Below, in pieces: positions 2,973 to 20,270 of a DNA stretch of 24,000 bases. The notes beneath the pieces are model-generated. The model did not search any database. It was given only the letters and a program-made list of their open reading frames with translations, and was not told the origin of the DNA. The stretch lies in contig CAJTCS010000006.1 of the NCBI GenBank assembly GCA_910574995.1, positions 81,979 to 105,978 of the forward strand. Reading direction: 5' to 3'. A program made the translations under genes and the position numbers. Within the stretch, counting starts at the first letter, position 1; the number at the start of each line of letters is the position of its first letter. The stretch is from Oscillospiraceae bacterium. GTDB taxonomy: Bacteria > Bacillota > Clostridia > Oscillospirales > Acutalibacteraceae.

Positions 2973-3046
2973 GCCCCGTCCTTTGATTTCCTTTCCATTA
3001 TAAAAGGTTTTGAAAAGAAAGACAAGCAGAGAAAGGTGTGGATACA

Positions 3047-6405: not shown

Positions 6406-6933
6406 ATGACGATGGATGAGATTTGTTGTTATGAATTGGCCTATCAGATTCGCCTTTACCTTGATATATGCAGAATAAGTGAATCGCAATTTGCCGAAGC
6501 TGTCTCCATCCCTTGCAAAGATATCACCCATTTTTTGATACATCAACAACCGGATCTGTCTATAGCTCAGATTTCCCAAATCTGCGATATGTTACACATT
6601 TCTTTGGATTCATTGGTTAGAGGGCCTGTTGAAGAAAGAAATTTCAGCATTCTTTTAAAGAAATGCGCTTTGGTGGGAAAGTGGAAAGGTACAGTTTTTT
6701 ATGATGCCTGCCTTTTCTTTCTGAAACGGTGGCAGAGAAAAAACATCTCTTCTGCCTGTTTGGATCGCTATACACAGTGGTTCATCTATTTCTGCTCAAC
6801 AGATGAAACCTCCGTATATAGCAATGAGTGTGCCTTCCGGGCTGTCCCATCCACTGTCTGCTTCACCAGAAAAATTTCAGAAAAGAAAGCGGAAAAGCTA
6901 AAACAGATCATAGAGGATTCCAAGAAAAAATGA
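6406..6933 (+). CDS. Hypothetical protein with degenerate XRE-like HTH N-terminus; its stop overlaps the start of the M56 gene
   Basis: ISESQFAEAVSIPCKDITHFLIHQQPDLSIAQISQICDMLHISLDSLV resembles an HTH_3 domain. The gene is AT-rich relative to its neighbours. Its TGA at 6931-6933 overlaps ATG 6930 of the next gene (ATGA). Confidence 0.5.
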   Translation: MTMDEICCYELAYQIRLYLDICRISESQFAEAVSIPCKDITHFLIHQQPDLSIAQISQICDMLHISLDSLVRGPVEERNFSILLKKCALVGKWKGTVFYDACLFFLKRWQRKNISSACLDRYTQWFIYFCSTDETSVYSNECAFRAVPSTVCFTRKISEKKAEKLKQIIEDSKKK

Positions 6934-8021
6934 CCGTCACGATCCATTCCATCCTTAACAGCGCGCTGTGGGGCCTGTTGCTTTCCTTGGCCTTGTCGCT
7001 GTTGAGCCGAAACAAACACTTCCTCTGCCGGTTGGGGACGGCGCCTCTCACCATTCTGGCTATCGTCTGCCTGGTTCGCTGCTGTATACCTGTGGAGTTC
7101 CACGCTACCCAGGAAGTGGGGACAGCGGCACTCAATCGTCTGCACCAGCTTATCGGCGGGGCGGCGGGCTCGCTTCTCCCGGAACCATGGCTTTTTAGGC
7201 TATGGTCTGTTGGAGCCATCGCGGGGGCTGTTCTGTGGGTGCCCGGGTACACATACAGGCTTCTTGCAGCCCACAAGCTGCCAGGCTCACAAGATAACCG
7301 CATAGAAAAATTCCGTTTTCAGCACAATATCCCCAGCCTGCGTGTATCCATATCAACAAATGTATCTACTCCCTGTGTTATAGGGATTTGGCGGGGGACT
7401 ATCCTGCTCCCCGACACTACCTACACGGCAAAACAGCTAGAATTGATTTTACAGCACGAATACTCCCATATCCGGCACCATGACGGCCTGCGGGATCTCC
7501 TGCTCCGGGTGCTCTGCACCATCTTCTGGTGGAATCCGGGTGTCCACATCTGCCGGGTTGTTATCACGCGTCTCTGCGACCACCGCTGTGACAGGGAGGT
7601 TTTGGACGTAGCCCGCCCCAGCGCCAAACGCTATTATTGCAGGACACTCCTGGCTTTCGCCAGCAGCCGGCCCGGCTCCTCCGGACAGCTTGCCGCGTCC
7701 TCCTTGAAAAGCCGGTTTTATTTGATTTTATACAGCACAGGCAAACAAAGAAGGGCCTGGGCGGCTCTGGTTATTCTGTTGGTTGTCACACTGTGGCTGC
7801 TCAGTTACCTGGTAATTTTCCAGCCCGCCTATCAGCCTGAAAGCCTCGACTATACAGATTTCGCACTTGAAAGCGGCACCATTACCCTGCGCAATGACGG
7901 GCGTTATGTCCTCGAAGCCGAACAGGGGGAAGTGCAGCTTACTCGTGAAACCGCACAAGCCATGCTTGCGGACGGGTTCCGCATGGAAATAAATCAAATG
8001 ATGGAGGTGCCATATCAATGA
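6930..8021 (+). CDS. M56 family (BlaR1/MecR1-like) membrane metalloprotease / signal transducer
   Basis: The HExxH zinc motif sits in LQHEYSHIRHHDGL, followed by WWNP, as in peptidase M56. There are N-terminal TM helices and a late TM (AWAALVILLVVTLWLLSYLVIF) before a short C-terminal ectodomain. The start is set at ATG 6930, because the ORF-track start at 6828 lies inside the previous gene. Confidence 0.8.
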   Translation: MTVTIHSILNSALWGLLLSLALSLLSRNKHFLCRLGTAPLTILAIVCLVRCCIPVEFHATQEVGTAALNRLHQLIGGAAGSLLPEPWLFRLWSVGAIAGAVLWVPGYTYRLLAAHKLPGSQDNRIEKFRFQHNIPSLRVSISTNVSTPCVIGIWRGTILLPDTTYTAKQLELILQHEYSHIRHHDGLRDLLLRVLCTIFWWNPGVHICRVVITRLCDHRCDREVLDVARPSAKRYYCRTLLAFASSRPGSSGQLAASSLKSRFYLILYSTGKQRRAWAALVILLVVTLWLLSYLVIFQPAYQPESLDYTDFALESGTITLRNDGRYVLEAEQGEVQLTRETAQAMLADGFRMEINQMMEVPYQ

Positions 8022-8281
8022 AAAATTGGAGGAAAGTGGTTGCCGGTACTTGCGCCAGCCTTTTGATGGCTGCCGCCTTATGTACGGCAGCCCAGGCCGC
8101 AGATACGCCGCAGCAGCGCACGGAAACTATCCGGGTGGCCGACAGCGGTATCCAGCCCTATGCTGACGTGATCGTAACCAAATACCGCATGTATGAGGGG
8201 AAGCTTCAAAAGCGCCGCTGGAATGAGACGCGGGGCTATTGGGTCGATCCGTATTGGATCACCATTGGGACTACATCCTGA
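8018..8281 (+). CDS. Small secreted protein (signal peptide), translationally coupled to the M56 gene
   Basis: ATG 8018 overlaps the M56 stop (ATGA). Signal peptide MKNWRKVVAGTCASLLMAAALCTAAQA/AD. A terminator follows. Confidence 0.6.
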   Translation: MKNWRKVVAGTCASLLMAAALCTAAQAADTPQQRTETIRVADSGIQPYADVIVTKYRMYEGKLQKRRWNETRGYWVDPYWITIGTTS

Positions 8282-8304
8282 AAAGACTGCTCAGGATATG
8301 GAAA

Positions 8305-8347
8305 GGCGGCTTTGCATTTGGGAAGCCCAGAGCAAAGCCGCTTTTTT
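8305..8347 (+). terminator. Rho-independent terminator of the M56 operon
   Basis: GGCGGCTTTGC (8305-8315) pairs with GCAAAGCCGC (8332-8341), followed by TTTTTT (8342-8347). Confidence 0.8.
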
Positions 8348-8418
8348 ATAAGTTAACCAGTGAAAATATTTGACCATAAGTTTCTCAAAAAATCACCACA
8401 ACGATGGAGGGACAGAGA

Positions 8419-8793
8419 ATGAAGAACCTGTATTCCGAGGGTTTTCAGGACAGTTTACAGAAAACCCTCCGCAACGTCAGGCTGGCCTGCGGTTTCAGCC
8501 AGAATGAGGTTGCGGAAGTATTAAAGGTAAGCCGCTCTACTTACACATACTATGAAAATGGCAAGATCATCCCAGATGTGCAGGCCCTCCGCATATTGGC
8601 AGAATTTTACGGCATCTCCGCCGTTGTGTTCATGTTCCCGGAAAAATATGCCGGCATGGACGTGTGCCGCCTTAAAAGCAAGATACAGAAACACCCTTTG
8701 CCAGATCCCCAGCGGTTCGGGGAGCTTACCCCGGAAGAAAAAAGCGTGGTAAAGGCATACCGGATAATGAAAGAGAGCACAGCCCATGGGTAA
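8419..8793 (+). CDS. XRE family HTH transcriptional regulator
   Basis: GGAGGG lies 7 nt before ATG 8419. FSQNEVAEVLKVSRSTYTYYENGKIIPDVQALRILAEFYGIS. Confidence 0.8.
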   Translation: MKNLYSEGFQDSLQKTLRNVRLACGFSQNEVAEVLKVSRSTYTYYENGKIIPDVQALRILAEFYGISAVVFMFPEKYAGMDVCRLKSKIQKHPLPDPQRFGELTPEEKSVVKAYRIMKESTAHG

Positions 8794-9184
8794 ATCAAAC
8801 TTGGAAAATATTCAAATAACTGTCATGAAAAAGACGGCAAGGGATTTGCGTAAGATCGCAAAGGAAACAGGGCTTACTATGGGTGAAGCAGTAGACCGGC
8901 TGACAGAAAGGATGACTACTACAGACCCGGAAATTGCCAAAATTCTCATACAGGAGGACTTGGTCATCATACCTGTAAAATTGAGCCGGGAACAGCGCGA
9001 GGATGTGTTTAAAGAGATTGCAAAGAGCCTCTTAATGACGTTTGACCCCGACACCATGGTCGATCTGGTAGAGCAGGCAAAGGTAGAACAGCAAGAGCAA
9101 TTGGATGAACTGTCGTCCATGTCCGATGGAGATCTTTTCCAAATGCTAGATAGCTATCGTGAGATGACAGAGTTCGACAACTGA
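8786..9184 (+). CDS. Hypothetical acidic protein, possible ribbon-helix-helix-like N-terminus
   Basis: ATG 8786 overlaps the stop of the XRE gene (ATGGGTAA). TARDLRKIAKETGLTMGEAVDRLTERM is RHH-like and the C-terminal half is strongly acidic. ATG 8825 is an alternative start. Confidence 0.5.
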   Translation: MGKSNLENIQITVMKKTARDLRKIAKETGLTMGEAVDRLTERMTTTDPEIAKILIQEDLVIIPVKLSREQREDVFKEIAKSLLMTFDPDTMVDLVEQAKVEQQEQLDELSSMSDGDLFQMLDSYREMTEFDN

Positions 9185-9224
9185 TCACGCATCCCATACA
9201 CAATCCGTCAGAAAGGGGGCCACT

Positions 9225-10043
9225 GTGGAAATCTACACATCAGCAGAGGGACAAAAACCCCTTGGGAGCATACAGGATGTTGAGGCCGCACTCAGCCAGT
9301 TTTCCATCAAAAAGAACTACAGAGGGTATCCCTATTTAGTCGAAGCCGTCAGCCGGGCCGCAGGGGCCTTCCCCCAGCGGCTGTCACTGGAAGAACTTTG
9401 CGCCCAGATCGCTGAAGCGAGGGGGGCGCCCCCAAAAACAGTCAGCCAGGACTTAAGGCGCATGGCCAAAAGCGTCTGGGACAGAAGCGCCAATTTTACC
9501 GTATATGAGCGCATCACAGGGTACAAGTTGCTGACGCGGCCTGAGCCGCTGGAATTCATATACAGTATGGCGGAGCATCTGCAGGTCACGAAAAACCACA
9601 GGATAGGGGTAAAACACATGCTGCAATTTGTAGACGGCAGGTTCCACGCACACGGCGTTTCCTTCACCCTGCCAAACGGGTTCTACCTTCACGATGAGAT
9701 ATTCCACCCGTTCAGCCTGTGCTGCCTTTCCCCCAATCAGAGGGTATACATTACGGTTGAGATCGCCCCAGACGGCAGGGAAGTTTTGTCGGCCCTGCAA
9801 GCCCTTTTTGAAGAGAACCCCAGCCTGCATCCTACTTCCGTTGTACAGCCGATTACAGTAAATGAGACAAGGGGATATGATGTCCTCTACGATTGCGACA
9901 ATATCAGCTACTACCAGGCCCGGCTCCGGTTCGCCAGGGGGCAGATCGTCACCTGCATCGCCCAATGTGAACAGGGTTCCCAAGGAAACCTCAAGAAGAA
10001 CCCCTCTGTACAGGCCCTGCTGCAGACGATCCGGGCAGAATAA
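9225..10043 (+). CDS. Spo0A_C-like DNA-binding domain fused to an uncharacterised ~140-aa domain (paralog of 10857-11288)
   Basis: GTG start with AAGGGGG upstream. The N-terminus YRGYPYLVEAVSRAA...LEELCAQIAEARGAPPKTVSQDLRRMAKSVW...RPEPLEFIYSMAEHL parallels the Spo0A C-terminal domain (IKGYLYLREAI...VERAIRHAIEVAW...PTNSEFIAMVADKL). The C-terminal half aligns with the next-but-two ORF. Confidence 0.7.
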   Translation: MEIYTSAEGQKPLGSIQDVEAALSQFSIKKNYRGYPYLVEAVSRAAGAFPQRLSLEELCAQIAEARGAPPKTVSQDLRRMAKSVWDRSANFTVYERITGYKLLTRPEPLEFIYSMAEHLQVTKNHRIGVKHMLQFVDGRFHAHGVSFTLPNGFYLHDEIFHPFSLCCLSPNQRVYITVEIAPDGREVLSALQALFEENPSLHPTSVVQPITVNETRGYDVLYDCDNISYYQARLRFARGQIVTCIAQCEQGSQGNLKKNPSVQALLQTIRAE

Positions 10044-10076
10044 AAAAGAGCGCCACAGGGACGCTCACAAACAGTT

Positions 10077-10262
10077 TTAGTTATTACCTTGTGCGGACGC
10101 AGTATCCATATTGGCCAAAGCATATTCTATCATTTGATTTATCAACTCATTCCTGCTGATACCAAACGCGGCCGCTTTTTGGTCAACTTCCAGTAAGGTA
10201 TCAACCGATATGCGCATAGAGATAACTTCCTTTTCCGGCTTCTTCGGAACAAATTTCGGCAT
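10077..10262 (-). CDS. Ribbon-helix-helix (CopG/Arc-like) DNA-binding protein
   Basis: ISMRISVDTLLEVDQKAAAFGISRNELINQMIEYAL follows the beta-strand/helix/helix RHH pattern. AGGGAGGA lies 9 nt upstream of ATG 10262, whereas the GTG at 10271 abuts the RBS. Confidence 0.7.
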   Translation of the reverse strand: MPKFVPKKPEKEVISMRISVDTLLEVDQKAAAFGISRNELINQMIEYALANMDTASAQGNN

Positions 10263-10278
10263 GATACCCACTCCTCCC

Positions 10279-10308
10279 TTGACAAAATTATATCCTATTT
10301 GCTATAGT
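10279..10308 (+). promoter_or_regulatory. Sigma-70/SigA-type promoter for the SLOG gene, overlapping the divergent RHH gene RBS
   Basis: TTGACA (10279-10284), an 18-nt spacer, then TATAGT (10303-10308). The leader carries TAAAATAGA twice and the palindrome TATGTA-N8-TACATA, which are possible operators. Confidence 0.6.
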
Positions 10309-10366
10309 ATGGATATATTCTAAAATAGATATGTAAAATAGAATACATACCAAGTGAGGGAGAAAA

Positions 10367-10843
10367 ATGCGGGAAAAGACCTGCTGCTTCACCGGCCACC
10401 GCAACATACCGCCAGAAGAAGTAGAGGGCATCCGGCAAAAGCTGGAAGCGACCATCCTGGAACTGTACAGCCAGGGCGTCATTTATTACGGGGCCGGGGG
10501 CGCGCTGGGCTTCGATACCCTTGCAGCCGAAGCAGTCCTGCACTTACGGGATAATGGCTGTCCCAACCTGCGGCTGATTTTAGTGCTGCCCTGCCCGGAT
10601 CAGACCAGGGGCTGGAAAGCAGAAAACATAGCGCGGTATGAGGAAATTAAGGGAAGGGCAGACAAAATCGTGTACACCAGCCAAGCCTATACCCCCGGCT
10701 GTATGCACAAGCGCAACCGCCACCTGGTGGACAACAGCAGCGTGTGCGTCTGCTACCTGACCCAGAACCGGGGCGGCACGGCCTATACAGCAGGTTACGC
10801 AGAAGAACACAGGCTCCATGTGATAAACATCGCAAAGATGTAG
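10367..10843 (+). CDS. SLOG superfamily protein, DUF1273 / YpsA-like
   Basis: The N-terminus KTCCFTGHRNIP...LYSQGVIYYGAGGALGFDTLAAEAVLHLR matches the DUF1273 signature (F.GHR......G...F..GGA.G.D...AE.VL.L). RBS GAGGGAG lies 7 nt before the ATG. Confidence 0.75.
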   Translation: MREKTCCFTGHRNIPPEEVEGIRQKLEATILELYSQGVIYYGAGGALGFDTLAAEAVLHLRDNGCPNLRLILVLPCPDQTRGWKAENIARYEEIKGRADKIVYTSQAYTPGCMHKRNRHLVDNSSVCVCYLTQNRGGTAYTAGYAEEHRLHVINIAKM

Positions 10844-10856
10844 AAAGAGGGGGCGT

Positions 10857-11288
10857 ATGTTACAATTTAAAGACGGCAAGTTCCATGCTTATGGCCTATC
10901 CTTTGCCCTGCCGGATGGGTTCTATTTAGATAGTGATCCTGACACGCCCTATGAATACGGGCTGTGCTGCTGCTCACCTGACGAAACAATATATTATGGC
11001 ATCTATGTGGACTGTGAGCATGAGGATCTCCGGGAGGGAATAGAGTTGCTTTTTGAGCCGGGAAGCGGTATGTACCAGACATCCGAAATAAGACCTGTTG
11101 TGTTAAACGGGCTGGCTGGCTTCGAGGTTACTTCCTATGACAGGGAATGCGATTACTATGAAACCCACCTTCAGGCATCGGAAGGCCCTGTGCTTATCTT
11201 TCATGCCCACTGTGAAAAGGGCCGGCTCGCGGACATAAAACATCACCCGGATACGCAAGCTGTCCTGCAGGCCATATCGGCGGATTGA
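10857..11288 (+). CDS. Hypothetical protein; stand-alone copy of the unknown domain fused to the Spo0A_C-like protein
   Basis: RBS AGAGGGGG lies before ATG 10857. MLQFKDGKFHAYGLSFALPDGFYL...CCCSP...HPDTQAVLQAISAD aligns along its full length with MLQFVDGRFHAHGVSFTLPNGFYL...CCLSP...NPSVQALLQTIRAE from 9618-10043. Confidence 0.7.
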   Translation: MLQFKDGKFHAYGLSFALPDGFYLDSDPDTPYEYGLCCCSPDETIYYGIYVDCEHEDLREGIELLFEPGSGMYQTSEIRPVVLNGLAGFEVTSYDRECDYYETHLQASEGPVLIFHAHCEKGRLADIKHHPDTQAVLQAISAD

Positions 11289-11308
11289 TGTGCCAGCACA
11301 GATCAGCA

Positions 11309-11337
11309 TTGCAAATCTACTGCAAAAATATTATACT
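11309..11337 (+). promoter_or_regulatory. Candidate SigA-type promoter upstream of the nuclease-RT gene
   Basis: TTGCAA (11309-11314), a 17-nt spacer, then TATACT (11332-11337). Confidence 0.55.
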
Positions 11338-11378
11338 GAAAGCCAGGAATGCAAGCTAGAACCGTATTTCTGGCTTTC
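11338..11378 (+). other. 9-bp stem hairpin between promoter and nuclease-RT start
   Basis: GAAAGCCAG (11338-11346) pairs with CTGGCTTTC (11370-11378) around a 23-nt loop. The left arm abuts the -10 box, so the TSS may fall inside it. Either the promoter call or the RNA-hairpin interpretation may therefore be wrong. Confidence 0.4.
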
Positions 11379-11405
11379 AGTATATCCCGAAAGGGTGGGA
11401 GTCCC

Positions 11406-14291
11406 GTGAAAATCGTAAGCTGGAACGTCAACGGTCTGCTGGCCTGCATGGAGAAAGGCGGCTTTTTCCCCATTGCCCGTATGCAGCCGGACATCGTGTG
11501 CTGCCAGGAGGTTAAGACCCACCAGCAGCCGGAGGTGCTGCCCGGATATCACCACTACTGGAACCCCAGCCAGCGCCACGGCTACGCCGGAATGCTTACC
11601 ATGTGCCAGCAGGAACCGCTCTCTGTCCGCAGGGGGCTGGGCGTCCCTGAGTTGGACATGGAGGGGCGGCTTCTAACTTTGGAATTCCCCTCCTTTTTCC
11701 TCCTGAACGCCTACTTCCCCAATTCACAGGACGGGCCGCACCGCCGCGCATACCGGGGCGCGTGGGATGCGGCCTTTTTTGATTTTGTGCGGAGGCTGGA
11801 ACAGGAAAAACCCGTGGTGATCTGCGGCGATTTCAACGTGACCCGTTCGACAATAGACGTTTTCCCCGGCAATACCCGGCTTATGGAAGCAGAAGCCGGG
11901 TACATGTCAGAGGAACGGGCGGCGCTGGAAAAGCTGCTGGCAAGCGGGTTTGTGGACGTTTACCGGCATATAAACCCGGAACAGGCCGGGGCTTACACCT
12001 GGTGGAGCCACCGCTTCCACAAGCGGGACAGGGACGACGGCTGGCGGCTGGATTACTTCCTGGTATCCCGGAAAATCAGCCGGAAAATCGGCGCTGTTGC
12101 CCATCACGCGGAAATCCTGGGGTCCGATCATTGCCCTGTGGGGCTGGACATACACCTTTCCTGGCAAAGCACACTGCCATATCAAAAGGGGCAGGTACGG
12201 CAGAAGCGCCCGAAAATTGACTTCCCGGACGAGTACCTGGCCGAGCTATGGGAGCAAACGGATTGGGACGCCGCAGAGGAAGCCCTGGCAAACCTTCAGC
12301 GGGAACTGGCCCAGGCCGCTTCCCACAGGGACATGGAGAAAATCACGGCGCTGCAAAAACGGCTGGTACGGCTGCCCGTATGCAAATTCCTGGCTGTGCG
12401 CAGGGTGTGCGCCGGAAACTCCGGGCCGGGGCTGGACGGGGTAAAGTGGAAAACCGCCGCCGACAAGGCACGGGCCGCGCTTCTGCTCAATTCCGATGGC
12501 TACCGGGCACAGCCCCTGCGGAATATCAAGGTACATTCAAAGTCTACAGGCCGCGACCGCATGATGGGCCTGCCCACCTTTTTCGACCGGGCCATGCAGG
12601 TACTCTACGGCTTCTCCCTCCTCCCTGTGCTGGAAGCCTGGGCAGAGAAAAAGTCCTTTGCGTTCCGGGAGGGGCGTTCCATGCAGGACTGCCATGCCTA
12701 TATCCTGCAAGCCCTGCAAGGCCGGGACGCGCCGGGGCTGGTGCTGCTGGCAGATGTGCAGGCGTACTATTCCCACATCCAGCACGGCTGGCTGCTGGAA
12801 AATGTGCCCATGGACAAGAAGGTGCTGGGGGAATTCCTGCGGGCCGGGTATGTGTTCGCCGGGGAACTGTTCCCGGAAGAAGAAGCGGGGTTGTCCCTGG
12901 GTTCCAATATCTCTCCAGCCCTTGGGAACTTTGTGCTGGATGGTTTACAATCCTATATTTATAAACAGCTCTATGGCACAGGGCCGATAGACTATCCAAA
13001 CGGTTCCCTCGTCCGCTTTGCCGATGACCTCCTGATAACCGTCCGGACAGGGCAGGACGCAAAGGACATCCAGGCCATCGTCGAAGATTTCCTCCGGCAG
13101 CGCGGGCTTATGCTCTCTGGGAAGAAAACAAAGGTTGTTCCCGTGTATGACGGCTTTACTTTCATGTCCCACCACTACCAAAAGAGGGACGGTTGGGTTT
13201 ACACCGCCCCGTCCCGTTCTGCCATTGACCGATGCAAGCAGGGGCTTCATGAGCTGATAACCACCCACAAGCGTTCCCAAAGGGAATTGATAGAATCCGT
13301 CAACCGCAAGCTCACCGGCTGGGCCACCCACCACCGCTACACAGACGCACAGGCGGCGTTTGTGGAAATAGATGGGTATGTGGACAAGCTGCTGCACCAG
13401 TCGGCCTACTCCAAGCACCCCCGCATGGCCCCCAAAAAGGTAGACAGCCGGTATTGGTTCCAGACCCCGGCAGGGGCCAGCTATTATGCCCTGCCAAACA
13501 GCCGCCACATCCATGTGAAGCACCTGTCCGACGTGCCTATAGTAGAAGCCTATGAAAAGCTGGATATGCGCAAAAACCCCTATGTGGACAGGGAATACTT
13601 CCGGCAGCGCCATGACAGGCAGGCCATCGAAAAAATGACAGGGAAATACCGCACGGTCTGGAAGCGCCAGGAAGGGCGGTGCTATTACTGCGGCAGGCCC
13701 ATCCTGCCCGGCCAGCCCCGGCCAGTGGTGCCGGTTGACTTGGAACAAGGGCCGCTGGTTTCCAACCTCGCGTACATCCATACCGCTTGTAAAGCCAACG
13801 AATTGCAGGTACGGGATGTGCTGGGGGACGTAACCGTATACAGCCCCAGGGAGCTGCTGGAAGCTGTGCCGGAAGTTGAAACGGCTGGCTTGCCGGAACC
13901 AAGCCGTAAAACAAAAGGCCCCATTGGCGCGGGCTGGATACATATGCCGCTAAAGCAATGGTTTGCAAAACAGACGGCGGCATCTATCACATTGACCTTT
14001 GCGGAACTGGAAAAAATCGACCATCGACCCCTGGCCCCCTCTGCCCGGAACAGCCGGGCCAACTGGTACACCCGGCCCGACAAGAACGCCATGGCCGAGG
14101 CATGGGTGACAGAGGGGTATAAGATTTTCCGGTTGAGCCTGGAAAAAGAAAAGGTGACGTTCCATCGTGTCCTGGAGGGGGCGTCCCATGTGAAGCTGCC
14201 AGGGTGGCTTAAAGAAGGAAAGATACCGGATGGAGCTGCGGCAGAGATAGAAGGGTTTTTGGCGTATATCAAGGGGAAATACGGGCTTTGA
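11406..14291 (+). CDS. Fusion protein: ExoIII/APE-type EEP nuclease + group-II-intron-like reverse transcriptase with maturase/thumb + Cys/His knuckle + unknown C-terminal domain
   Basis: GTG 11406 lies after GGGTGGGAG and gives VKIVSWNVNG, the usual ExoIII N-terminus; ATG 11349 gives the longest ORF. EEP motifs: SWNVNG, CQEVK (E at 11508), GDFNV (11826-11840), WRLDYFLVS, GSDHCPV (12120-12140). RT motifs: NSGPGLDGV (12420-12443), LLADVQAYYSHI, SNISPALGNFVL, VRFADDLLI (FADD at 13017-13028), SGKKTKV, DGFTFMSH. Thumb/X domain: LTGWATHHRY (13311-13340). CYYCG...HTAC spans 13680-13790. Confidence 0.85.
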   Translation: MKIVSWNVNGLLACMEKGGFFPIARMQPDIVCCQEVKTHQQPEVLPGYHHYWNPSQRHGYAGMLTMCQQEPLSVRRGLGVPELDMEGRLLTLEFPSFFLLNAYFPNSQDGPHRRAYRGAWDAAFFDFVRRLEQEKPVVICGDFNVTRSTIDVFPGNTRLMEAEAGYMSEERAALEKLLASGFVDVYRHINPEQAGAYTWWSHRFHKRDRDDGWRLDYFLVSRKISRKIGAVAHHAEILGSDHCPVGLDIHLSWQSTLPYQKGQVRQKRPKIDFPDEYLAELWEQTDWDAAEEALANLQRELAQAASHRDMEKITALQKRLVRLPVCKFLAVRRVCAGNSGPGLDGVKWKTAADKARAALLLNSDGYRAQPLRNIKVHSKSTGRDRMMGLPTFFDRAMQVLYGFSLLPVLEAWAEKKSFAFREGRSMQDCHAYILQALQGRDAPGLVLLADVQAYYSHIQHGWLLENVPMDKKVLGEFLRAGYVFAGELFPEEEAGLSLGSNISPALGNFVLDGLQSYIYKQLYGTGPIDYPNGSLVRFADDLLITVRTGQDAKDIQAIVEDFLRQRGLMLSGKKTKVVPVYDGFTFMSHHYQKRDGWVYTAPSRSAIDRCKQGLHELITTHKRSQRELIESVNRKLTGWATHHRYTDAQAAFVEIDGYVDKLLHQSAYSKHPRMAPKKVDSRYWFQTPAGASYYALPNSRHIHVKHLSDVPIVEAYEKLDMRKNPYVDREYFRQRHDRQAIEKMTGKYRTVWKRQEGRCYYCGRPILPGQPRPVVPVDLEQGPLVSNLAYIHTACKANELQVRDVLGDVTVYSPRELLEAVPEVETAGLPEPSRKTKGPIGAGWIHMPLKQWFAKQTAASITLTFAELEKIDHRPLAPSARNSRANWYTRPDKNAMAEAWVTEGYKIFRLSLEKEKVTFHRVLEGASHVKLPGWLKEGKIPDGAAAEIEGFLAYIKGKYGL

Positions 14292-14307
14292 ATCTGGGTG
14301 GATTTCT

Positions 14308-14335
14308 GCATTACTATATTTCTATATAGTAATGC
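14308..14335 (+). terminator. Perfect 12-bp hairpin after the nuclease-RT gene (terminator-like, weak U tract)
   Basis: GCATTACTATAT (14308-14319), loop TTCT, ATATAGTAATGC (14324-14335), followed only by GGTTTAAAAG. Confidence 0.45.
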
Positions 14336-14528
14336 GGTTTAAAAGCCGTTACATGTATTCCCCATACAATATAAGCCGGTTCTTATATGTAGGAATTTCA
14401 CAAAACAGAGAGAGCGTTCCCGTTGGTATTTTGGCTGGATTGGATATGGATACCCCGCCGAAATCTTGGTAATATGTAGAGAGCAAAGGATAAAGAAAGG
14501 GGGAGCCTCACTGGATACATTTACAAAC

Positions 14529-16664
<2,136 letters not shown>

Positions 16665-16665
<1 letters not shown>

Positions 16666-16698
16666 TGGCTATCAAAAGGTGTACTTTTTGATAGCCAC
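16665..16698. repeat. Palindromic site (13-bp perfect arms) at the recombinase stop codon; candidate left recombination site and/or terminator
   Basis: GTGGCTATCAAAA (16665-16677), GGTGTACT, TTTTGATAGCCAC (16686-16698), then TTTTTC. The reverse complement of 16665-16692 matches 16807-16834 at 25/28 positions. Confidence 0.6.
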
Positions 16699-16710
16699 TT
16701 TTTCATCTGT

Positions 16711-16739
16711 AGAATACCACATTTTCCCTGAAAATGCAA
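16711..16739 (-). promoter_or_regulatory. Candidate extended -10 promoter inside the IR-bounded segment, currently pointing toward the recombinase gene
   Basis: The minus strand reads TTGCAT (16739-16734), a 17-nt spacer ending in TGg, then TATTCT (16716-16711). A small hairpin (TTGCCG TTA CGGCAA) that reads hairpin plus T-run on the minus strand lies upstream of it. Confidence 0.45.
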
Positions 16740-16806
16740 GAGCTGGAGTATGATTGATGAACTATTTCACAAAAAATTTTTGCCGTTACGGCAAAGGCAG
16801 GGCTGA

Positions 16807-16834
16807 ATCAAAAAGTACACAACTTGATAGCCAC
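16807..16834. repeat. Right copy of the recombinase-adjacent repeat, inverted relative to 16665-16692
   Basis: ATCAAAAAGTACACAACTTGATAGCCAC compared with the reverse complement of the left site, ATCAAAAAGTACACCTTTTGATAGCCAC. The 3 mismatches are clustered. Confidence 0.6.
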
Positions 16835-16856
16835 CCGGATGAAGGAGGTGTTGGCT

Positions 16857-17222
16857 GTGGCGGAGGCTGCGCAGCGCATGGATTTACTTGCAGAATATGA
16901 GGAGCTTTTGCGCTATTGCCCTATGCTCACCACAGACCCGGAAACCGTGCAGGGGCTGGATTTTTACACGCTGCAAGTGCTGTCCACCGCTGCCCGGGGA
17001 AACTGCCGCCAGCGCAAGGAGCTGCAGAAAAAGGGCATCGCCCAGGCCAAGGCCCAGGGAGTGCAGTTTGGCAGGCCCAAGGCCGCTGTGCCAAAGAATT
17101 TCAAGAGAATAGTCGAGGCTTGGCACATGGGCGAGATTTCCCGCCTGGAGGCTATCCGACAGAGCGGCTTGACCTCCGCCACCTTTTACCGCTATTTGAA
17201 AAAGCTGCGGGAACAAGGCTAG
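16857..17222 (+). CDS. Resolvase C-terminal HTH-domain-only protein (recombinase remnant or stand-alone HTH_7-like regulator)
   Basis: RKELQKKGIAQAKAQGVQFGRPKAAVPKNFKRIVEAWHMGEISRLEAIRQSGLTSATFYRYLKKL parallels the recombinase tail [64 protein letters not shown]. There is no catalytic Ser domain. GAAGGAGG at 16841-16848 favours GTG 16857. The ORF-track TTG 16824 lies in the repeat, and ATG 16878 is also possible. Confidence 0.55.
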   Translation: MAEAAQRMDLLAEYEELLRYCPMLTTDPETVQGLDFYTLQVLSTAARGNCRQRKELQKKGIAQAKAQGVQFGRPKAAVPKNFKRIVEAWHMGEISRLEAIRQSGLTSATFYRYLKKLREQG

Positions 17223-17343
17223 TGCTTATGCGCGGGACGTAAAGGCCATGCGCTTTACATAAGCAAATTCGAGAGGAAGGAGACAGATAACTGAACGTTT
17301 ACAACCGAGACCGACCAATTCATTTTAGGAGGTATGAAATCAA

Positions 17344-19941
17344 ATGAGCAAGAAAATTTTAGCGGCCCTGCTTGCTGTTATGATGGTGCTGTCTTTGGTG
17401 CCCATGACGGCTTTGGCGGCAGAGGAACCGGATGTTATCCGTGCGCCTTTGGGAGATACCACCAATAAATATCCGTCGAATTTACTTAATATTGACGGAT
17501 ATGAAGTTGCGTATGAGGAAGACTCAACCATTACCGAAGAAGATGTTACGGCCTATAAGGTTGCCGTGACACACCCCGCCCTGCTGAAACATTCCAATAA
17601 TGCAAACCCGCAGGTTTCTGGCCTTTGGGTAGGCATTGGTGTCAAAATCACTACGCCAGGTGAGGGCGAAGGAAAAGACGGGACTGGAAGCTCGTATTTT
17701 GCCTTTGTGACCGACAAGACAGACTTTTCTGAAATTGCAGGAGTATTCAAAGAAAAGGACTGGGCAGGTCAAGGCGTTGCGGGCTATTCCGAGTATGGCT
17801 GGCGTGCACATGAGAATGGCTATGTATTCCAGTGGTATAACCTTGCCGATACAACAAAATATGAAGGCAAGACCCCCTATCTGGTGGAGCGCAACCCCCA
17901 GGAAAACGGCGGCTATACCTACAAAGCATACAAGCTTGATTTCGATGTGACAGAGGGCCATCTCGTAAAATATGAGGCCCCCCTTACTGGCAGCCTGTCT
18001 GTTGAGGCCAATGGTCAAAAAGTTAGCGCTGCGGGCACTCCCGTTGCAAAGGGCACAGAATTGACCATCACCGCAACACCGGAAGAGTATTTTAAGATCA
18101 AAGCGGTCAAGGCCGGAGAGACGGAGTTGGAAGCGGCGGCTGACGGCACTTATAAGACTACCGTGAACGCGGACGTAACCATTTCCGTTGAGTTCGAGAC
18201 AGACTCAGAAGCCACCGGTATGGTTGGCGCCCCGGCAGTACAGGATGTGCCTGATACCATTACGGGTGACAACGCTACTTTGGCTAATAGTGTAAAAACG
18301 GAACTGGCAAAATCGGACGCTGTAACTTTTGACAACACTGTTATGCAGGCCGCCGCCGCTAAAGAGGCTGCAAAGTCTAAGGAGACCGGCGCAACAGGCC
18401 TGACTGCGCTGCAAGCCAGCGGCATTACAAACAGCGAAGTGACGAATGTCGATACTGCAGAGGGTGTAAACATTGCGGTACTCACTTACATGGATATTTC
18501 TATCACGGATGCAGTCAGTGAGAATGGAACTACCGGTTCTGTTACGCTGGATATCCAGCCGAGGGCTAAAACAATTGCAACTGTGAAGAACCTTGAATCC
18601 GAAGCAAATAGCATTGTCATACTGGACGAAGAGAAAACCAATGTTGCCACAGCTAACACTGTTGAACTCAGCGATGAGGAAATCACCATCGATAGCCCTA
18701 CGGATGTGAGTTTAACATTGCCTGCCGGGTTCCTGAGTAATGGAACCTATACGGTAGAACACAAAAAGACTACGGGCCAGAATTACTACTATGATGGCAC
18801 AGTGACCAGTAACATGCTTTCTTTCACAAGCCAGCACGGGTTCAGCGAATTCACTATACCTTCTGCCACGACCCCGGTTGCCGAAGTAAACGGCACAAAG
18901 TTTGCAACCCTTGAAGATGCCATTGCCAATGTCAACGGCGGGACTATTGTATTGTTGGCGGACAATTTGCCCGCCACTGTCAATACTGCTATGACATTTA
19001 CTGTCAAGAGCAAGGACGGGGAAACCTTTACAGCTGCTATTACTGCTGGTTCTTCTGTAAAAATGTCAACTGTAGACAATGGAGATGGCAGTATAACATA
19101 CACCTTTACTTCCAAGGGTAGCGGCTCCACTGGCGGTTCCAGCGGCGGCTCCTCCGGCACCAGCGGCAACATTACGGTCACCAAGCCCGCTAACGGCACC
19201 GTGACCACCACCCCCAGCAGCGCCAAAGAAGGCGACAAGGTAACTGTGACCGTCAAGACCGACGCGCCCTACTACATCGTGACCGGCATCACCGTCAAGG
19301 GCGAAAACGGCAACGTTGTTGCCACCAAGAACGCCGACGGCACCTACAGCTTCACCATGCCCAAGGGCAGCGTGAGCGTGAGCGCCACAATCAGCCATAT
19401 TTACAACCTGTTCAAAGACGTACCCACCGACATTGCCGAGTACGGCACAGCCATCAAGTGGGCTGTAGAAAAGGGCATCACCCTGGGCACCGACACAGTT
19501 GCCTACAGCACCTTCAGCCCCTACAACCCCTGCACCCGCGCCCAGATGGTCGTGTTCCTCTACCGCGCGGCGGGCAGCCCCACTGTGACCGGCACAAACG
19601 CCTTTACCGACGTTCCCAACGATGCCGAGATCCAGAAGGCTGTCCAGTGGGCCGTAAGCAAGGGCATCACCAAGGGCACCAGCGACACGACCTTTGACCC
19701 CTACGCCCCCTGCACCCGCGGCCAGATGGTGACCTTCCTGCACCGCAACCACAGCGAGCCTGCGGCCACCGGCAGCAACAATTTTGCCGATGTGCCCGCC
19801 GACGCTTTCTACAAGACTGCTGTGCAGTGGGCAGTAAACGAGGGCATCACCAACGGCACCGGTGATACTACCTTTGCCCCCAACGATGCCTGCACCCGCG
19901 TGCAGATGGTGACTTTCCTGTATCGGGATATGGGGAAGTAA
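17344..19941 (+). CDS. Large secreted cell-surface protein with three C-terminal SLH (S-layer homology) domains
   Basis: TAGGAGG RBS. Signal peptide MSKKILAALLAVMMVLSLVPMTALAAE. Gly/Ser linker GSGSTGGSSGGSSGTSG at about 19117-19167. Three SLH units: FKDVP...AIKWAVEKGITLG...CTRAQMVVFLYR, FTDVP...AVQWAVSKGITKG...CTRGQMVTFLHR, FADVP...AVQWAVNEGITNG...CTRVQMVTFLYR. Confidence 0.9.
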   Translation: MSKKILAALLAVMMVLSLVPMTALAAEEPDVIRAPLGDTTNKYPSNLLNIDGYEVAYEEDSTITEEDVTAYKVAVTHPALLKHSNNANPQVSGLWVGIGVKITTPGEGEGKDGTGSSYFAFVTDKTDFSEIAGVFKEKDWAGQGVAGYSEYGWRAHENGYVFQWYNLADTTKYEGKTPYLVERNPQENGGYTYKAYKLDFDVTEGHLVKYEAPLTGSLSVEANGQKVSAAGTPVAKGTELTITATPEEYFKIKAVKAGETELEAAADGTYKTTVNADVTISVEFETDSEATGMVGAPAVQDVPDTITGDNATLANSVKTELAKSDAVTFDNTVMQAAAAKEAAKSKETGATGLTALQASGITNSEVTNVDTAEGVNIAVLTYMDISITDAVSENGTTGSVTLDIQPRAKTIATVKNLESEANSIVILDEEKTNVATANTVELSDEEITIDSPTDVSLTLPAGFLSNGTYTVEHKKTTGQNYYYDGTVTSNMLSFTSQHGFSEFTIPSATTPVAEVNGTKFATLEDAIANVNGGTIVLLADNLPATVNTAMTFTVKSKDGETFTAAITAGSSVKMSTVDNGDGSITYTFTSKGSGSTGGSSGGSSGTSGNITVTKPANGTVTTTPSSAKEGDKVTVTVKTDAPYYIVTGITVKGENGNVVATKNADGTYSFTMPKGSVSVSATISHIYNLFKDVPTDIAEYGTAIKWAVEKGITLGTDTVAYSTFSPYNPCTRAQMVVFLYRAAGSPTVTGTNAFTDVPNDAEIQKAVQWAVSKGITKGTSDTTFDPYAPCTRGQMVTFLHRNHSEPAATGSNNFADVPADAFYKTAVQWAVNEGITNGTGDTTFAPNDACTRVQMVTFLYRDMGK

Positions 19942-20018: not shown

Positions 20019-20270
20019 TCATGTCCTCATCAGCACAAACCACCGGCCGCTGTCCTCAAATAAATGCGTTTCCTTGCCTTTTACCACAACCGTGTACTGC
20101 TTGGCGATTTCATGGGTAGTATGGTCTTTTGTCAGCCCCACCCGCTTCACTTCCTCTATGTCGAACTCACCTACCAGGGGGATGTGGATCGTCCGGGGCC
20201 GCACTTCCCCGTCCACATAATGGGTGGCTAAAACCTCAACGTATTGTTTCCGTCTGCTCTCCGTTAGCAT
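20019..20270 (-). CDS. Hypothetical small protein (83 aa)
   Basis: ATG 20270 has GGGGA 7 nt upstream. No motif I recognise. Its 5' end overlaps the upstream ORF by 35 nt. Confidence 0.5.
   Translation of the reverse strand: MLTESRRKQYVEVLATHYVDGEVRPRTIHIPLVGEFDIEEVKRVGLTKDHTTHEIAKQYTVVVKGKETHLFEDSGRWFVLMRT

Follow-up and report, generated by a model that had tools for sequence, protein, structure and literature searches.

What does a gut-Clostridia conjugative element do with a protein that joins an AP endonuclease to a group II intron-type reverse transcriptase (RT)? In the 24-kb window, by which we mean the whole stretch of DNA that was analyzed, an uninterrupted mechanical open reading frame (ORF) of 980 aa runs from an ATG at 11349 to 14291 (+ strand, as are all features given below), and residue numbers count from this ATG. 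The likeliest start of the coding sequence is a GTG at 11406 (11406..14291, 961 aa), as a sequence-only reading of the same DNA had assumed. All 24 aligned homologues begin at ORF residue 20 with 'MKIxSWNVNG', GGGTGGGAG precedes this GTG, and the predicted structure gives residues 1-16 a pLDDT of 26; thus, GTG 11406 is likely the true start. The upstream signal includes a Shine-Dalgarno-like AAGGGTGGGAG (11391..11401) that lies 4 nt 5' of the GTG, and no comparable signal was found at the upstream ATG 11349. The gene had also been credited with a promoter-like signal of its own. Such hexamers are present (TTGCAA-17-TATACT, 11309..11337, 9/12 matches), but they are weak, and the five promoter-like sites in the region do not exceed chance (3.4 +/- 1.6 expected after shuffling). 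An AT-rich perfect hairpin (14302..14340; dG -21.6, z = -4.9) begins 11 nt past the stop codon. A strong hairpin occurs 3' of the gene in only 3 of 18 related loci, with unrelated sequences, and the one in the window is probably a local terminator or a putative binding site and not a family feature; an Rfam match to mir-92 in the hairpin region was at chance level.

Residues 20-268 (11406..12152) form an AP endonuclease/3'-5' exonuclease domain of the ExoIII/ExoA/APE1 type. Pfam Exo_endo_phos matches residues 23-261 (E = 5.6e-22), and the NCBIfam equivalog model xth (TIGR00633), with a cutoff of 99 bits, reaches 245. The domain aligns without gaps to XthA and ExoA (E about 1e-70, 42-43% identity) and end to end, with no loop deletions, to APE1 (E = 1e-55), and its predicted structure has TM-scores of about 0.9 to all three; most of it is modeled at a pLDDT of about 90, with three stretches falling to 70-83. 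Seven residues (N26, E54, D161, N163, D235, D260, and H261) are invariant in 25 sequences sharing 38-89% identity. The PF14529 'Endonuclease-reverse transcriptase' model reached 17 bits, below its cutoff of 27. These comparisons mark the nuclease as an ExoA/Xth/APE1 enzyme of the repair type, not an L1-EN-like one. The predicted disordered linker that follows (residues 272-289, 12162..12215; pLDDT <50) varies in length within the family (alignment columns 300-345 are unconserved) and is the point at which the gene is split in sister lineages.

The RT half consists of RVT_N, the N-terminal extension/RT0 of group II-type RTs (residues 301-377, 12249..12479; Pfam E = 2.3e-15), the RT fingers and palm (RVT_1, residues 398-605, 12540..13163; E = 5e-20), and the thumb/maturase domain (X, GIIM; residues 627-703, 13227..13457; E = 2.7e-11). 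Together with Exo_endo_phos, all exceed their Pfam gathering scores. Pfam and TIGR00633 thereby bear out the sequence-only reading, which had described a single ORF encoding a complete ExoIII/APE nuclease and a group II-type RT with a maturase-type thumb; every motif string that it quoted was found in the translation. The RT catalytic residues are D469 and F-A-D-D 557-560; D469, A558, D559, D560, and K593 are invariant in the 25 sequences (38-89% identity), and residue 557 is F or Y. The RT half matches T.el4h, the RT of a group IIB intron, with E = 3e-74 and a TM-score of 0.87-0.90, and it is 35% identical to, and collinear with, a bona fide intron-encoded protein (IEP) over 537 aa, across the GIIM domain and through the En region. 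The D region and a degenerate En (HNH) module occupy residues 705-815 (13461..13793). The zinc ligands of this module (C778-x2-C781 ... H811-x2-C814) are kept and invariant in the 25 sequences, none of which has a conserved His at either HNH catalytic position; the IEP segment 'CYFCG..DVHHKI..NLAYVHRYCHQAHH' aligns to 'CYYCG..PV-VPVD..NLAYIHTACKANE' of the window. On this evidence, the HNH nuclease of the fusion RT is inactivated, and the zinc scaffold alone is retained. In the RT tree, the family is monophyletic with respect to IEPs. A long stem sets it apart from them, as do the scores, which are at least 370 bits for the family and at most 280 bits for IEPs. The TIGR04416 score of the fusion, 207 bits, lies below the cutoff of 300. 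As far as sequence comparison can tell, the RT descends from an En-containing group II intron protein and does without the intron RNA.

A second predicted disordered linker (residues 817-855, 13797..13913; pLDDT <50) leads to a C-terminal domain (CTD) with an alpha/beta fold, DUF7662 (residues 856-980, 13914..14288). Its Pfam model, PF24698, was matched by 18 of 18 family members (best E = 5.8e-14), and its core is mostly modeled at pLDDT 81-93, with low confidence for residues 943-951 and the C-terminal ~20 residues. The domain is possibly winged-helix-like, a fold assignment that is tentative because the structural matches to wHTH are only weak (probability at most 0.35).

More than 300 protein clusters from ENA, NCBI, JGI, and Logan share the architecture of the fusion at 98% coverage, and about 60 clusters at 50% identity span the RT and CTD end to end. 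A closed chromosome (L005) carries the fusion, and RefSeq lists it as WP_217957900.1; one member is labeled in RefSeq merely as "exodeoxyribonuclease III". Frameshifted copies of the fusion are found at L007 and L012. The two halves also occur as separate genes: in 10 of 10 RT-only forms examined, an Exo_endo_phos gene lies upstream and overlaps the RT gene, by 4 nt in most pairs (L004, L011, L092/L093, L094, L097, L175, L177, and L178) and by a few bases more in L010 and L013. Fused forms interleave with split forms in the RT tree. The RT is obligately partnered with an ExoA/Xth/APE1 nuclease, either fused to it or encoded upstream and translationally coupled. We could not find this widespread nuclease-RT family described in the searchable literature, and retron, DRT, and Abi HMMs scored far under their cutoffs, in agreement with the earlier suggestion that it belongs to no characterized prokaryotic RT class. 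The most informative features, namely the inactivated HNH remnant, DUF7662, and the split two-gene forms, were absent from that first reading.

An RNA partner is lacking. Rfam found no intron domain in the 24-kb window at E<=1, nor, at each family's gathering threshold, in 139 kb of DNA from the loci of eight relatives; in the positive control for this search the control locus gave RF00029 at 71 bits. Nor does the gene come with an ncRNA or with DGR, retron, or CRISPR features. Intergenic spaces at related loci are short and unconserved, and the 3' flanks of 18 loci bear no relation to one another, with no shared 3' UTR. Between the window and its nearest relative, L002, DNA homology sets in at the start codon (11407) and runs to 27 nt past the stop; thus, no UTR moves with the ORF.

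The placement of the gene among ICE cargo was confirmed: the family lies in cargo regions of Clostridial ICEs/IMEs, amid genes for a T4SS coupling protein, DUF3991-Toprim, relaxase, recombinases, and a ParM-like protein, and where it lies with respect to the transfer genes differs from locus to locus. The commonest neighbor, and a candidate partner, is a YpsA/SLOG-family gene (10367..10843; PF06908, E = 2.2e-15), which lies directly upstream on the same strand at eight loci (the window, L001, L012, L095, L096, L098, and L099/L101) and downstream of the pair in L003, but which most loci lack; this SLOG protein is DprA-related, with a weak DNA_processg_A match. A gene for a 478-aa NYN-domain protein (14466..15902; NYN E = 3.3e-5) is recurrent, in variable position: the window protein is 53.5% identical to that encoded at 4357-5769 of L092, upstream of the split pair, and in L081 a shorter NYN gene adjoins the fusion. 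Y-family polymerase cassettes occur near the family in six loci (L001, L003, L012, L081, L092, and L097), and other repair-flavored neighbors include LexA-like S24 and ImmA-like M78 peptidases, RecD2, YqaJ, and a beta-clamp-like gene. The same cargo regions carry defence-island-type genes (BREX, MmeI RM, PemK, WYL, AAA_14, and DUF4143).

Such surroundings suit more than one function. The main rival to a role in repair is an anti-phage/anti-MGE defence module, which we consider somewhat unlikely. On infection, this effector, made of one polypeptide or encoded by two genes and possibly controlled by the adjacent YpsA/SLOG nucleotide sensor, would synthesize DNA, break down the DNA of invader or host via its ExoIII domain, or do both. 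On the one hand, the gene is a self-contained cassette, its homology with the nearest relative stopping at the ORF ends, and it sits in variable cargo together with the defence-island-type genes. The SLOG superfamily has been linked to nucleotide-signalling conflict systems (PMC6459960), intron-less prokaryotic RTs characterized so far are mostly defence-associated (PMC8632793), and a defence function has been reported for a group II-like PrimPol-RT fusion (PMC12439943). On the other hand, PADLOC gave generic RT models only and no specific model (UG/DRT at most 48 bits), NCBIfam Drt and retron models, whose cutoffs are 200-390 bits, did not exceed 21 bits, and no conserved ncRNA or extra effector accompanies the gene. 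Moreover, the fusion carries a housekeeping-type repair nuclease in unmodified form, the Y-family polymerase and LexA-like neighbors suggest DNA-damage functions, and YpsA is missing from most loci.

A factor that helps the ICE to establish itself in a new host is improbable. Working on the single strand as it enters or on the fresh duplex, it might repair DNA left abasic or nicked by glycosylase- or nuclease-based host barriers or, alternatively, aid complementary-strand synthesis from RNA primers. The exclusively ICE/IME-like context and the DprA-related SLOG neighbor are consistent with this, as is the failure to find the fusion in GenBank phages or PLSDB plasmids. However, the proposal is entirely inferential: no oriT, leading-region position, or early promoter was established at any locus, and the gene does not keep its place relative to the transfer genes. 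ExoIII-family enzymes also prefer duplex DNA.

The domain order invites comparison with human LINE-1 ORF2p, which likewise carries an N-terminal EEP/APE-family nuclease, an RT, a Cys/His zinc motif, and a CTD in one polypeptide. LINE-type elements and group II introns share RT ancestry, and early non-LTR elements had an RLE nuclease that was replaced by an APE-type one, which parallels the exchange of HNH for ExoIII here. The likeness noted in the sequence-only reading holds for the order of domains and stops there: the nuclease is an ExoA/APE1 orthologue, the RT belongs to the intron clade and is nearest T.el4h, two-gene forms exist, and ORF2p was not among the best 50 structural matches of the fusion protein. 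We consider it highly improbable that the gene is an autonomous LINE-like retroelement, whose APE-type domain would nick the target while the RT copies its own mRNA by target-primed reverse transcription (TPRT), the nick-and-prime role raised earlier. Both active sites are conserved, and the neighborhood differs between relatives, as such an element would allow. Yet retrotransposition is disfavored because there is no RNA partner, no shared UTR, and, among the matches listed, only one locus in each of 18 fusion-bearing genomes, with no poly(A), multicopy, or truncated copies. The context of near-identical copies is fixed (23 of 24 contigs for P0016; for P0004, every contig examined has the same core neighborhood), synteny between L012 and the window extends about 6 kb upstream, and the split forms are hard to square with cis-preferential TPRT. 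The resemblance to ORF2p is best read as convergence.

It is barely plausible that the protein serves a group II intron RNA in trans, with ExoIII replacing HNH for bottom-strand cleavage in retrohoming. Like D/En IEPs (T.el4h, PDB 6me0/8fli; ltrA-type), it retains RVT_N, RT0-7, thumb/X, D, and the CxxC...HxxC order, with 31-35% identity and collinearity, and retrohoming would indeed need another nuclease in place of the dead HNH. Unlike them, it has no surrounding intron RNA (no domain V/VI or D1-D4 in the window or the 139 kb), forms a separate clade, scores below the TIGR04416 cutoff, and adds the ExoIII domain and DUF7662, the latter not an intron feature. As for an assembly or gene-calling artefact joining a housekeeping xth gene to an adjacent intron ORF, its probability is negligible: beyond the a priori possibility and the two frameshifted copies nothing speaks for it, the same junction recurs in the >300 clusters from four sources, in the closed chromosome, and in RefSeq, the split forms keep the two genes in the same order, the stop codon of one overlapping the start codon of the next, and chimeric assembly is excluded because the architecture is conserved across independent assemblies, an argument from conservation and not from reads.

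Nuclease-polymerase fusions are familiar from repair: LigD combines a phosphoesterase, a polymerase, and a ligase, and Bacillus PolX combines PolX with a PHP AP-endonuclease/3'-exonuclease. Our fusion similarly tethers a 3'-end-cleaning or AP-incising nuclease to a potentially gap-filling polymerase, although the folds (RT plus EEP enzyme) are unrelated, there is no ligase, and the gene is encoded by mobile elements. The explanation that we favor, at a little under even confidence, is a domesticated, intron-less group II RT coupled to an AP endonuclease/3'-exonuclease and acting in the repair of element or host DNA or in tolerance of damage to it. Several observations count against a repair role: repair-type neighbors occur at only about a third of loci and in variable positions, the same cargo holds the defence-island-type genes, and the commonest neighbor, YpsA/SLOG, fits defence at least as well. 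In addition, ExoIII-type 3'-5' resection yields 5' overhangs, which differ from the classic intermediate of microhomology-mediated end joining (MMEJ).

Two group II-related RTs offer comparisons. G2L4 of Pseudomonas aeruginosa is likewise a free-standing group II-derived RT without a ribozyme and is reported to repair double-strand breaks through MMEJ (10.1101/2022.03.14.484287; PMC11761039). G2L4 has YIDD, no D/En domains, and no fused nuclease and is confined to Proteobacteria, whereas our family, from Bacillota MGEs, has [F/Y]ADD, keeps D, the full thumb, and a dead En, and is always paired with ExoIII. Its RT is much closer to true IEPs, and G2L4 was not among the best 60 of 64 PDB sequence matches. 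These differences point to independent domestication and make the analogy loose. PPRT (DRT7/UG10) also fuses a group II-like RT to a second DNA enzyme and a long CTD, and it has been reported both in defence and in contributing to the oxidative DNA damage response (PMC12439943); its partner is PrimPol, its RT clade is different, and UG/DRT HMMs are weak on our fusion.

In the repair or damage-tolerance explanation, an intron RT would have lost its intron RNA and its own HNH activity and gained a host-type ExoA/Xth/APE1 nuclease and DUF7662, and the fusion travels on Clostridial integrative/conjugative elements as a cargo gene that is complete in itself. The nuclease would incise at an abasic site or nick, or trim a blocked or mismatched 3' end, to leave a clean 3'-OH; handed this end, the tethered RT would prime from it and extend on a DNA or RNA template, while the D region, the zinc module, and DUF7662 may hold the nucleic acid. 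The role of the family is probably repair or damage tolerance, which could take the form of gap filling after AP incision or of end cleaning and extension during end joining, loosely analogous to the part reported for G2L4.

The nuclease-RT fusion is encoded by a single uninterrupted ORF on the forward strand of the window (11349..14291, 980 aa), and residues are numbered here along this translation. We rejected the ATG at 11349 as the start codon. All 24 aligned homologues begin at the equivalent of residue 20, with the motif MKIxSWNVNG; a Shine-Dalgarno sequence, GGGTGGGAG, precedes the GTG at 11406 that corresponds to this residue; residues 1-16 of the long ORF are predicted to be disordered (pLDDT 26); and DNA similarity to the nearest relative begins at 11407. 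The likely gene is therefore 11406-14291 (961 aa), in agreement with the sequence-only reading. That reading also credited the gene with a promoter-like signal, which is present at 11309-11337 but does not rise above chance expectation. The three domains it had expected, Exo_endo_phos (PF03372; residues 23-261, E=5.6e-22), RVT_1 (residues 398-605) and GIIM (residues 627-703), all exceed their Pfam gathering scores, as does RVT_N (residues 301-377). Nuclease and RT are separated by a disordered linker (residues 272-289, pLDDT <50), which varies in length across the family. A second disordered linker (residues 817-855) precedes DUF7662 (residues 867-939), a Pfam domain that is borderline when the full protein is scanned and passes when the C-terminus is scanned alone. 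DUF7662 was found by Pfam in 18 of 18 family members, and its core in the fusion is predicted mostly at pLDDT 81-93. Sequence comparison of this region with the PDB gave no match, Foldseek against the PDB returned only winged-helix DNA binders at non-significant scores (probability <=0.35), and a profile search with the C-terminal domain returned mostly fragments of the same family. A role for DUF7662 in nucleic-acid binding is only a guess.

Profile scores and catalytic residues assign the nuclease half to the Xth/ExoA/APE1 family of the EEP superfamily. Among NCBIfam models, the exodeoxyribonuclease III equivalog TIGR00633 matched the N-terminus of the fusion with 245 bits (cutoff 99), and TIGR00195 matched the nuclease domain with 226 bits (cutoff 182.55). 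The domain aligns without gaps to H. pylori XthA and B. subtilis ExoA (E ~1e-70; 42-43% identity in structural alignment) and to zebrafish and human APE1 (E ~1e-55 to 1e-60), with a structural TM-score of ~0.9 to XthA, ExoA and APE1. Its ExoIII catalytic residues (N26, E54, D161, N163, D235, D260 and H261) are invariant in an alignment of 25 family sequences. By family, it is thus predicted to be a repair-type AP endonuclease/3'-exonuclease. A trimmed, L1-EN-like nickase was rejected as its identity on the basis of the gap-free alignments and of the low score of PF14529, termed "Endonuclease-reverse transcriptase" (17 bits vs a cutoff of 27).

The best match of the RT half is the T.el4h group IIB intron protein (E=3e-74, TM 0.87-0.90), with far lower scores for GsI-IIC and RT-Cas1. 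With ltrA of Aneurinibacillus, a bona fide intron-encoded protein (IEP), it shares 35% identity in a collinear alignment of 537 residues, and the HNH nuclease (En) region is part of the aligned stretch. Residues D469, A558, D559, D560 and K593 of the RT are invariant in the 25-sequence alignment, and position 557 is either F or Y. In the En region, the ltrA intron protein reads CYFCG...DVHHKI...NLAYVHRYCHQAHH, whereas the window protein reads CYYCG...PV-VPVD...NLAYIHTACKANE. The zinc ligands C778, C781, H811 and C814 are invariant in the same alignment, and a conserved histidine is found at neither of the catalytic HNH positions in any of the 25 sequences. The loss of these histidines beside intact zinc ligands argues that the ancestral HNH nuclease has been inactivated and that only its zinc scaffold survives. 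By descent, the RT is an intron-less group II-like enzyme. It belongs with the G2L proteins in the broad sense, being nearest to group II IEPs without an intron RNA.

That RNA was searched for directly. In the 24-kb window there was no match to RF00029 or to D1-D4 at Rfam E<=1, and at Rfam gathering thresholds none was found in 139 kb around eight relatives; in a genuine intron used as a positive control (L091), RF00029 scored 71 bits 28 nt after the IEP and a D1-D4 match lay upstream. The protein contains RT0-7 and the X/thumb region. A mobile group II intron was rejected on the missing ribozyme, the replaced catalytic histidines and the score of the RT part against TIGR04416, the group II intron RT equivalog (207 bits vs a cutoff of 300). 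That the protein serves an intron RNA in trans seems extremely unlikely.

The remaining classes of prokaryotic RTs fit no better. Two papers (PMC4244168, PMC11761039) describe G2L4 as proteobacterial, with a YIDD active-site motif and no D or En domains; the nuclease-RT family has FADD or YADD, a D region, an En remnant and Bacillota hosts. The retron model NF038233 scored 21 bits (cutoff 235), and neither suitable repeats nor an Rfam match was found. A diversity-generating retroelement was rejected since no direct repeat longer than 37 nt is present in 7000-19000 and no template/variable repeat pair was found. For a CRISPR-associated RT, there is no CRISPR array in the window and no Cas domain among the annotated neighbours, and the PADLOC match to Cas1_IIIb is confined to the RT part of that model. 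The Abi/UG defence RTs (DRT1-10, AbiA/K/P2) were rejected as well: the best UG model, UG4, scored 48 bits, and the NCBIfam Drt2 and Drt3a models scored <=19 bits against cutoffs of 200-390. The sequence-only reading had placed the fusion outside all characterised prokaryotic RT classes, and there it stays.

The same fusion was sought in other genomes and proved to represent a widespread family. A search of 5.8 billion proteins yielded >300 clusters that match at E<=1e-10. Nearly all of the best 120 have 98% query coverage and an identical Pfam set, with identity down to 37%, and they come from ENA, NCBI, JGI and Logan assemblies; with the architecture recurring in assemblies from four sources, the chance that it is an assembly or gene-calling artefact is negligible. 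HMMER, run exhaustively over 1.84 billion representatives, found ~60 clusters at 50% identity that span the RT and C-terminus end to end; matches below ~370 bits are ordinary 550-600-aa intron proteins that end at query residue ~524. Hosts among the genome matches listed are Lachnospiraceae, Oscillospiraceae, Anaerovoracaceae and Selenomonadaceae, together with the closed chromosome of Bengtsoniella intestinalis and one Muribaculaceae MAG, in which the fusion is on a short contig. The closest of these matches is "Bacterium D16-76" (88%).

About one third of the family consists of ~690-aa proteins without the nuclease. Every such form examined (L004, L010, L011, L013, L092/L093, L094, L097, L175, L177 and L178) has a 238-266-aa Exo_endo_phos gene immediately upstream, and the two genes overlap by 4 nt in most pairs and by a few bases more in L010 and L013. 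A neighbour-joining tree of RT portions, computed without bootstrap, shows the family as monophyletic and set apart from intron proteins by a long stem, with fused and split forms intermingled many times. The pairing of nuclease and RT thus appears to be obligate, whether fused or split. Repeated fusion and fission at a disordered, variable linker is strong evidence that the two activities cooperate. In two relatives, the gene is split into two out-of-frame ORFs away from the domain linker (L007 3521-6481 and L012 10001-11909); such broken copies are pseudogenes or products of faulty assembly.

In eukaryotes, LINE-type elements probably arose when an APE-type nuclease took the place of an older one. 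The sequence-only reading proposed a LINE-ORF2-like architecture for the fusion. On the one hand, the domain order is indeed that of APE-type non-LTR elements, with an APE-family nuclease N-terminal to an RT in one ORF. On the other hand, neither LINE hallmarks nor clade relationships bear the comparison out: sister lineages of the fusion encode nuclease and RT as two genes, its best structural matches are an intron RT and repair APEs, and ORF2p is absent from the top 50 structural matches. The analogy is therefore superficial, limited to domain order, and the parallel is most simply explained by convergence.

Nor does the gene behave, in the loci compared, as a proliferating retroelement with the conserved UTRs, 3' tail, multiple and 5'-truncated copies and target-site duplications that mark a LINE. 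Homology with the nearest relative (L002) covers 11407-14318 at 88.6% DNA identity and so takes in the coding sequence and just 27 nt beyond it; outside these limits the flanks are unrelated. The intergenic spaces beside the gene are 30-200 nt long and unconserved, and no 3' flank or UTR is shared across 18 loci. A strong 3' hairpin is present in three of the 18, with unrelated sequences, so the window hairpin at 14302-14340 is probably a local terminator. Among the genomes listed, each fusion-bearing genome has one locus. The surroundings of near-identical copies are constant (in 23 of 24 contigs for the homologue P0016, and with the same core for the homologue P0004), and synteny between L012 and the window extends over ~6 kb upstream of the fusion. 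ORF-limited homology, single loci and fixed contexts point to a cargo gene that is reshuffled by recombination among related elements, unlike a proliferating LINE-like unit. The nick-and-prime retrotransposition suggested by the sequence-only reading did not withstand these observations, and we regard it as very unlikely.

The window is part of a Bacillota conjugative element, and the fusion sits among its cargo, as had been read from the sequence: a DUF3991-Toprim protein (1250-2239), a T4SS coupling protein (3038-4813), a serine resolvase (15946-16665) and many HTH regulators are encoded there. Relatives adjoin genes for T4SS hydrolases, a relaxase, ParM-like and ParB-like proteins, and tyrosine and serine recombinases. 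In IMG/VR, seven contigs have the full-length pair, in the fused or the split two-gene form; the two that were examined, L097 with a split and L099 with a fused pair, proved to be elements with a relaxase or recombinase rather than phages. PLSDB plasmids and GenBank phages contain no fusion, only ordinary intron RTs or stand-alone Xth genes.

Several other features of these elements deserve mention. Bacillota conjugative elements typically carry adhesin-like cargo, which the window exemplifies with an 865-aa SLH surface protein that has InlB-type B-repeats (17344-19941) and an internal 180-nt repeat (19588-19920); in L087, the fusion is flanked by giant SpaA-type adhesins. Downstream of the serine resolvase gene, a second gene (16824-17222) partially duplicates the C-terminal HTH part of the resolvase (48% identity over 84 aa). 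The two genes are separated by a 28-nt inverted repeat with 89% complementarity, one arm of which (16665-16692) reaches into the final base of the resolvase ORF and the other (16807-16834) into the beginning of the duplicate; it may serve as a res or recombination site or be the scar of a rearrangement. In window 6406-8021, the gene for a BlaR1-type M56 peptidase and the preceding 175-aa ORF are 59% and 29% identical to their counterparts in L012 and seem to be part of a shared backbone of the element lineage. Just upstream of the fusion, a 143-aa protein (10857-11288) is paralogous, with 37% identity over 146 aa, to the C-terminal half of a 272-aa protein (9225-10043) whose N-terminal half matches Spo0A_C; the domain common to both has no Pfam match and recurs in L012. 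At the end of the window, a tandem array with a 120-nt unit (23031-24000, 8.1 copies, 87% matches) continues past the window boundary and overlaps a 226-aa ORF on the reverse strand (23040-23720) with no Pfam family.

Some genes are found repeatedly beside the pair. In eight loci, whose RT portions are 35-63% identical to that of the window, a YpsA/SLOG gene immediately precedes it in the same orientation; in L003, such a gene is downstream of the pair. A Y-family polymerase cassette is found within 8 kb in six loci, sometimes with LexA-like S24 and ImmA-like M78 peptidases. An NYN-domain protein is another recurring neighbour, and that of the window (14466-15902) is 53.5% identical to one in L092. 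RM, BREX and PemK genes are also found near relatives; in L081, an ICE carrying P0004, a pemK cis-regulatory RNA (RF02913, 55.5 bits) is located at 16753-16833, just upstream of the PemK toxin gene. A protein with Sigma70_r4 and RNA_pol_A_CTD domains adjoins the pair in two distant loci (L001 10877-12053 and L094 3824-4468) and may be a dedicated transcription factor. The window has no match to an IMS polymerase; an 83-aa ORF on its reverse strand (20019-20270) shares 59% identity with the last, small gene of the Y-family polymerase cassette in L012 (L012 3612-3863) and may be what is left of a translesion cassette that has since disappeared.

In this family, both active sites are conserved, nuclease and RT are joined by a flexible tether or coupled in translation, the HNH domain is dead, no RNA partner was found, and the genes reside on ICEs. 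From these properties, a mechanism can be proposed in which the nuclease would create or clean a DNA 3'-OH, by incision at an AP site or nick or by removal of 3' blocks or mismatches, the RT would extend this end on a DNA or RNA template, and the D, zinc and DUF7662 modules would hold the substrate. Its closest functional analogues would be the repair fusions of a nuclease with a polymerase. We tentatively favor, at somewhat less than even odds, a role in repairing the DNA of the element or the host or in tolerating damage to it, because the nuclease is an unmodified repair-type enzyme, Y-family polymerase and LexA-like genes are neighbours, and a repair function has been reported (10.1101/2022.03.14.484287, PMC11761039) for the free-standing group II-like RT G2L4. 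A further precedent is a PrimPol-RT fusion with a reported role in the damage response (PMC12439943).

The main rival to repair is a defence or conflict effector, which the cassette-like behaviour of the gene, the defence-island genes near relatives and the SLOG partner (PMC6459960) would suit; against this, the fusion matches no specific defence-RT model, and we consider such a role possible but the less likely of the two. More doubtful is lesion- or nick-primed reverse transcription, in which the AP endonuclease would open an abasic site or nick and the tethered RT would write the sequence of an RNA into the break, with transcripts of the damaged locus or of the element as possible templates. 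If true, this would be a prokaryotic, independently evolved counterpart of the target-primed reverse transcription of LINE ORF2p, and the exchange of an older nuclease for an APE-type enzyme, as in eukaryotic non-LTR elements, would have a bacterial parallel. A role in establishment of the element in recipient cells is unlikely.

An ExoIII-RT fusion in prokaryotes is undescribed in the openly searchable full-text literature, the main surveys of prokaryotic RTs included. In public annotation, the RT family is hidden, as RefSeq names a member, the 962-aa fusion WP_217957900.1 of Acutalibacter muris (P0004 cluster), only "exodeoxyribonuclease III", a name assigned by PGAP. Judged from sequence and predicted structure, we have a new clade and a new architecture of domesticated group II-like RTs, whose function is unproven. 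The known prokaryotic RTs thereby gain a sizeable clade, with ~60 clusters at 50% identity and hundreds at 90%, which offers a natural experiment in retroelement evolution, where an IEP appears to have lost its ribozyme and HNH site, recruited an APE-family nuclease and been repeatedly fused and split. Retroelement specialists should be surprised by a bacterial APE-RT pairing that is conserved and retains a fossil HNH domain. Whether an intron-type RT can use an APE-made nick for target-primed synthesis can be tested directly in gut species available in culture, Acutalibacter muris among them, and if incision at AP sites or nicks is coupled to templated synthesis, the protein would be a compact, single-polypeptide "nick-and-write" enzyme of interest for genome-writing tools. 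For the gut microbiome, the family points to a function in DNA repair or damage tolerance, or in conflict, that is carried on conjugative elements beside Y-family polymerase cassettes and SLOG proteins.
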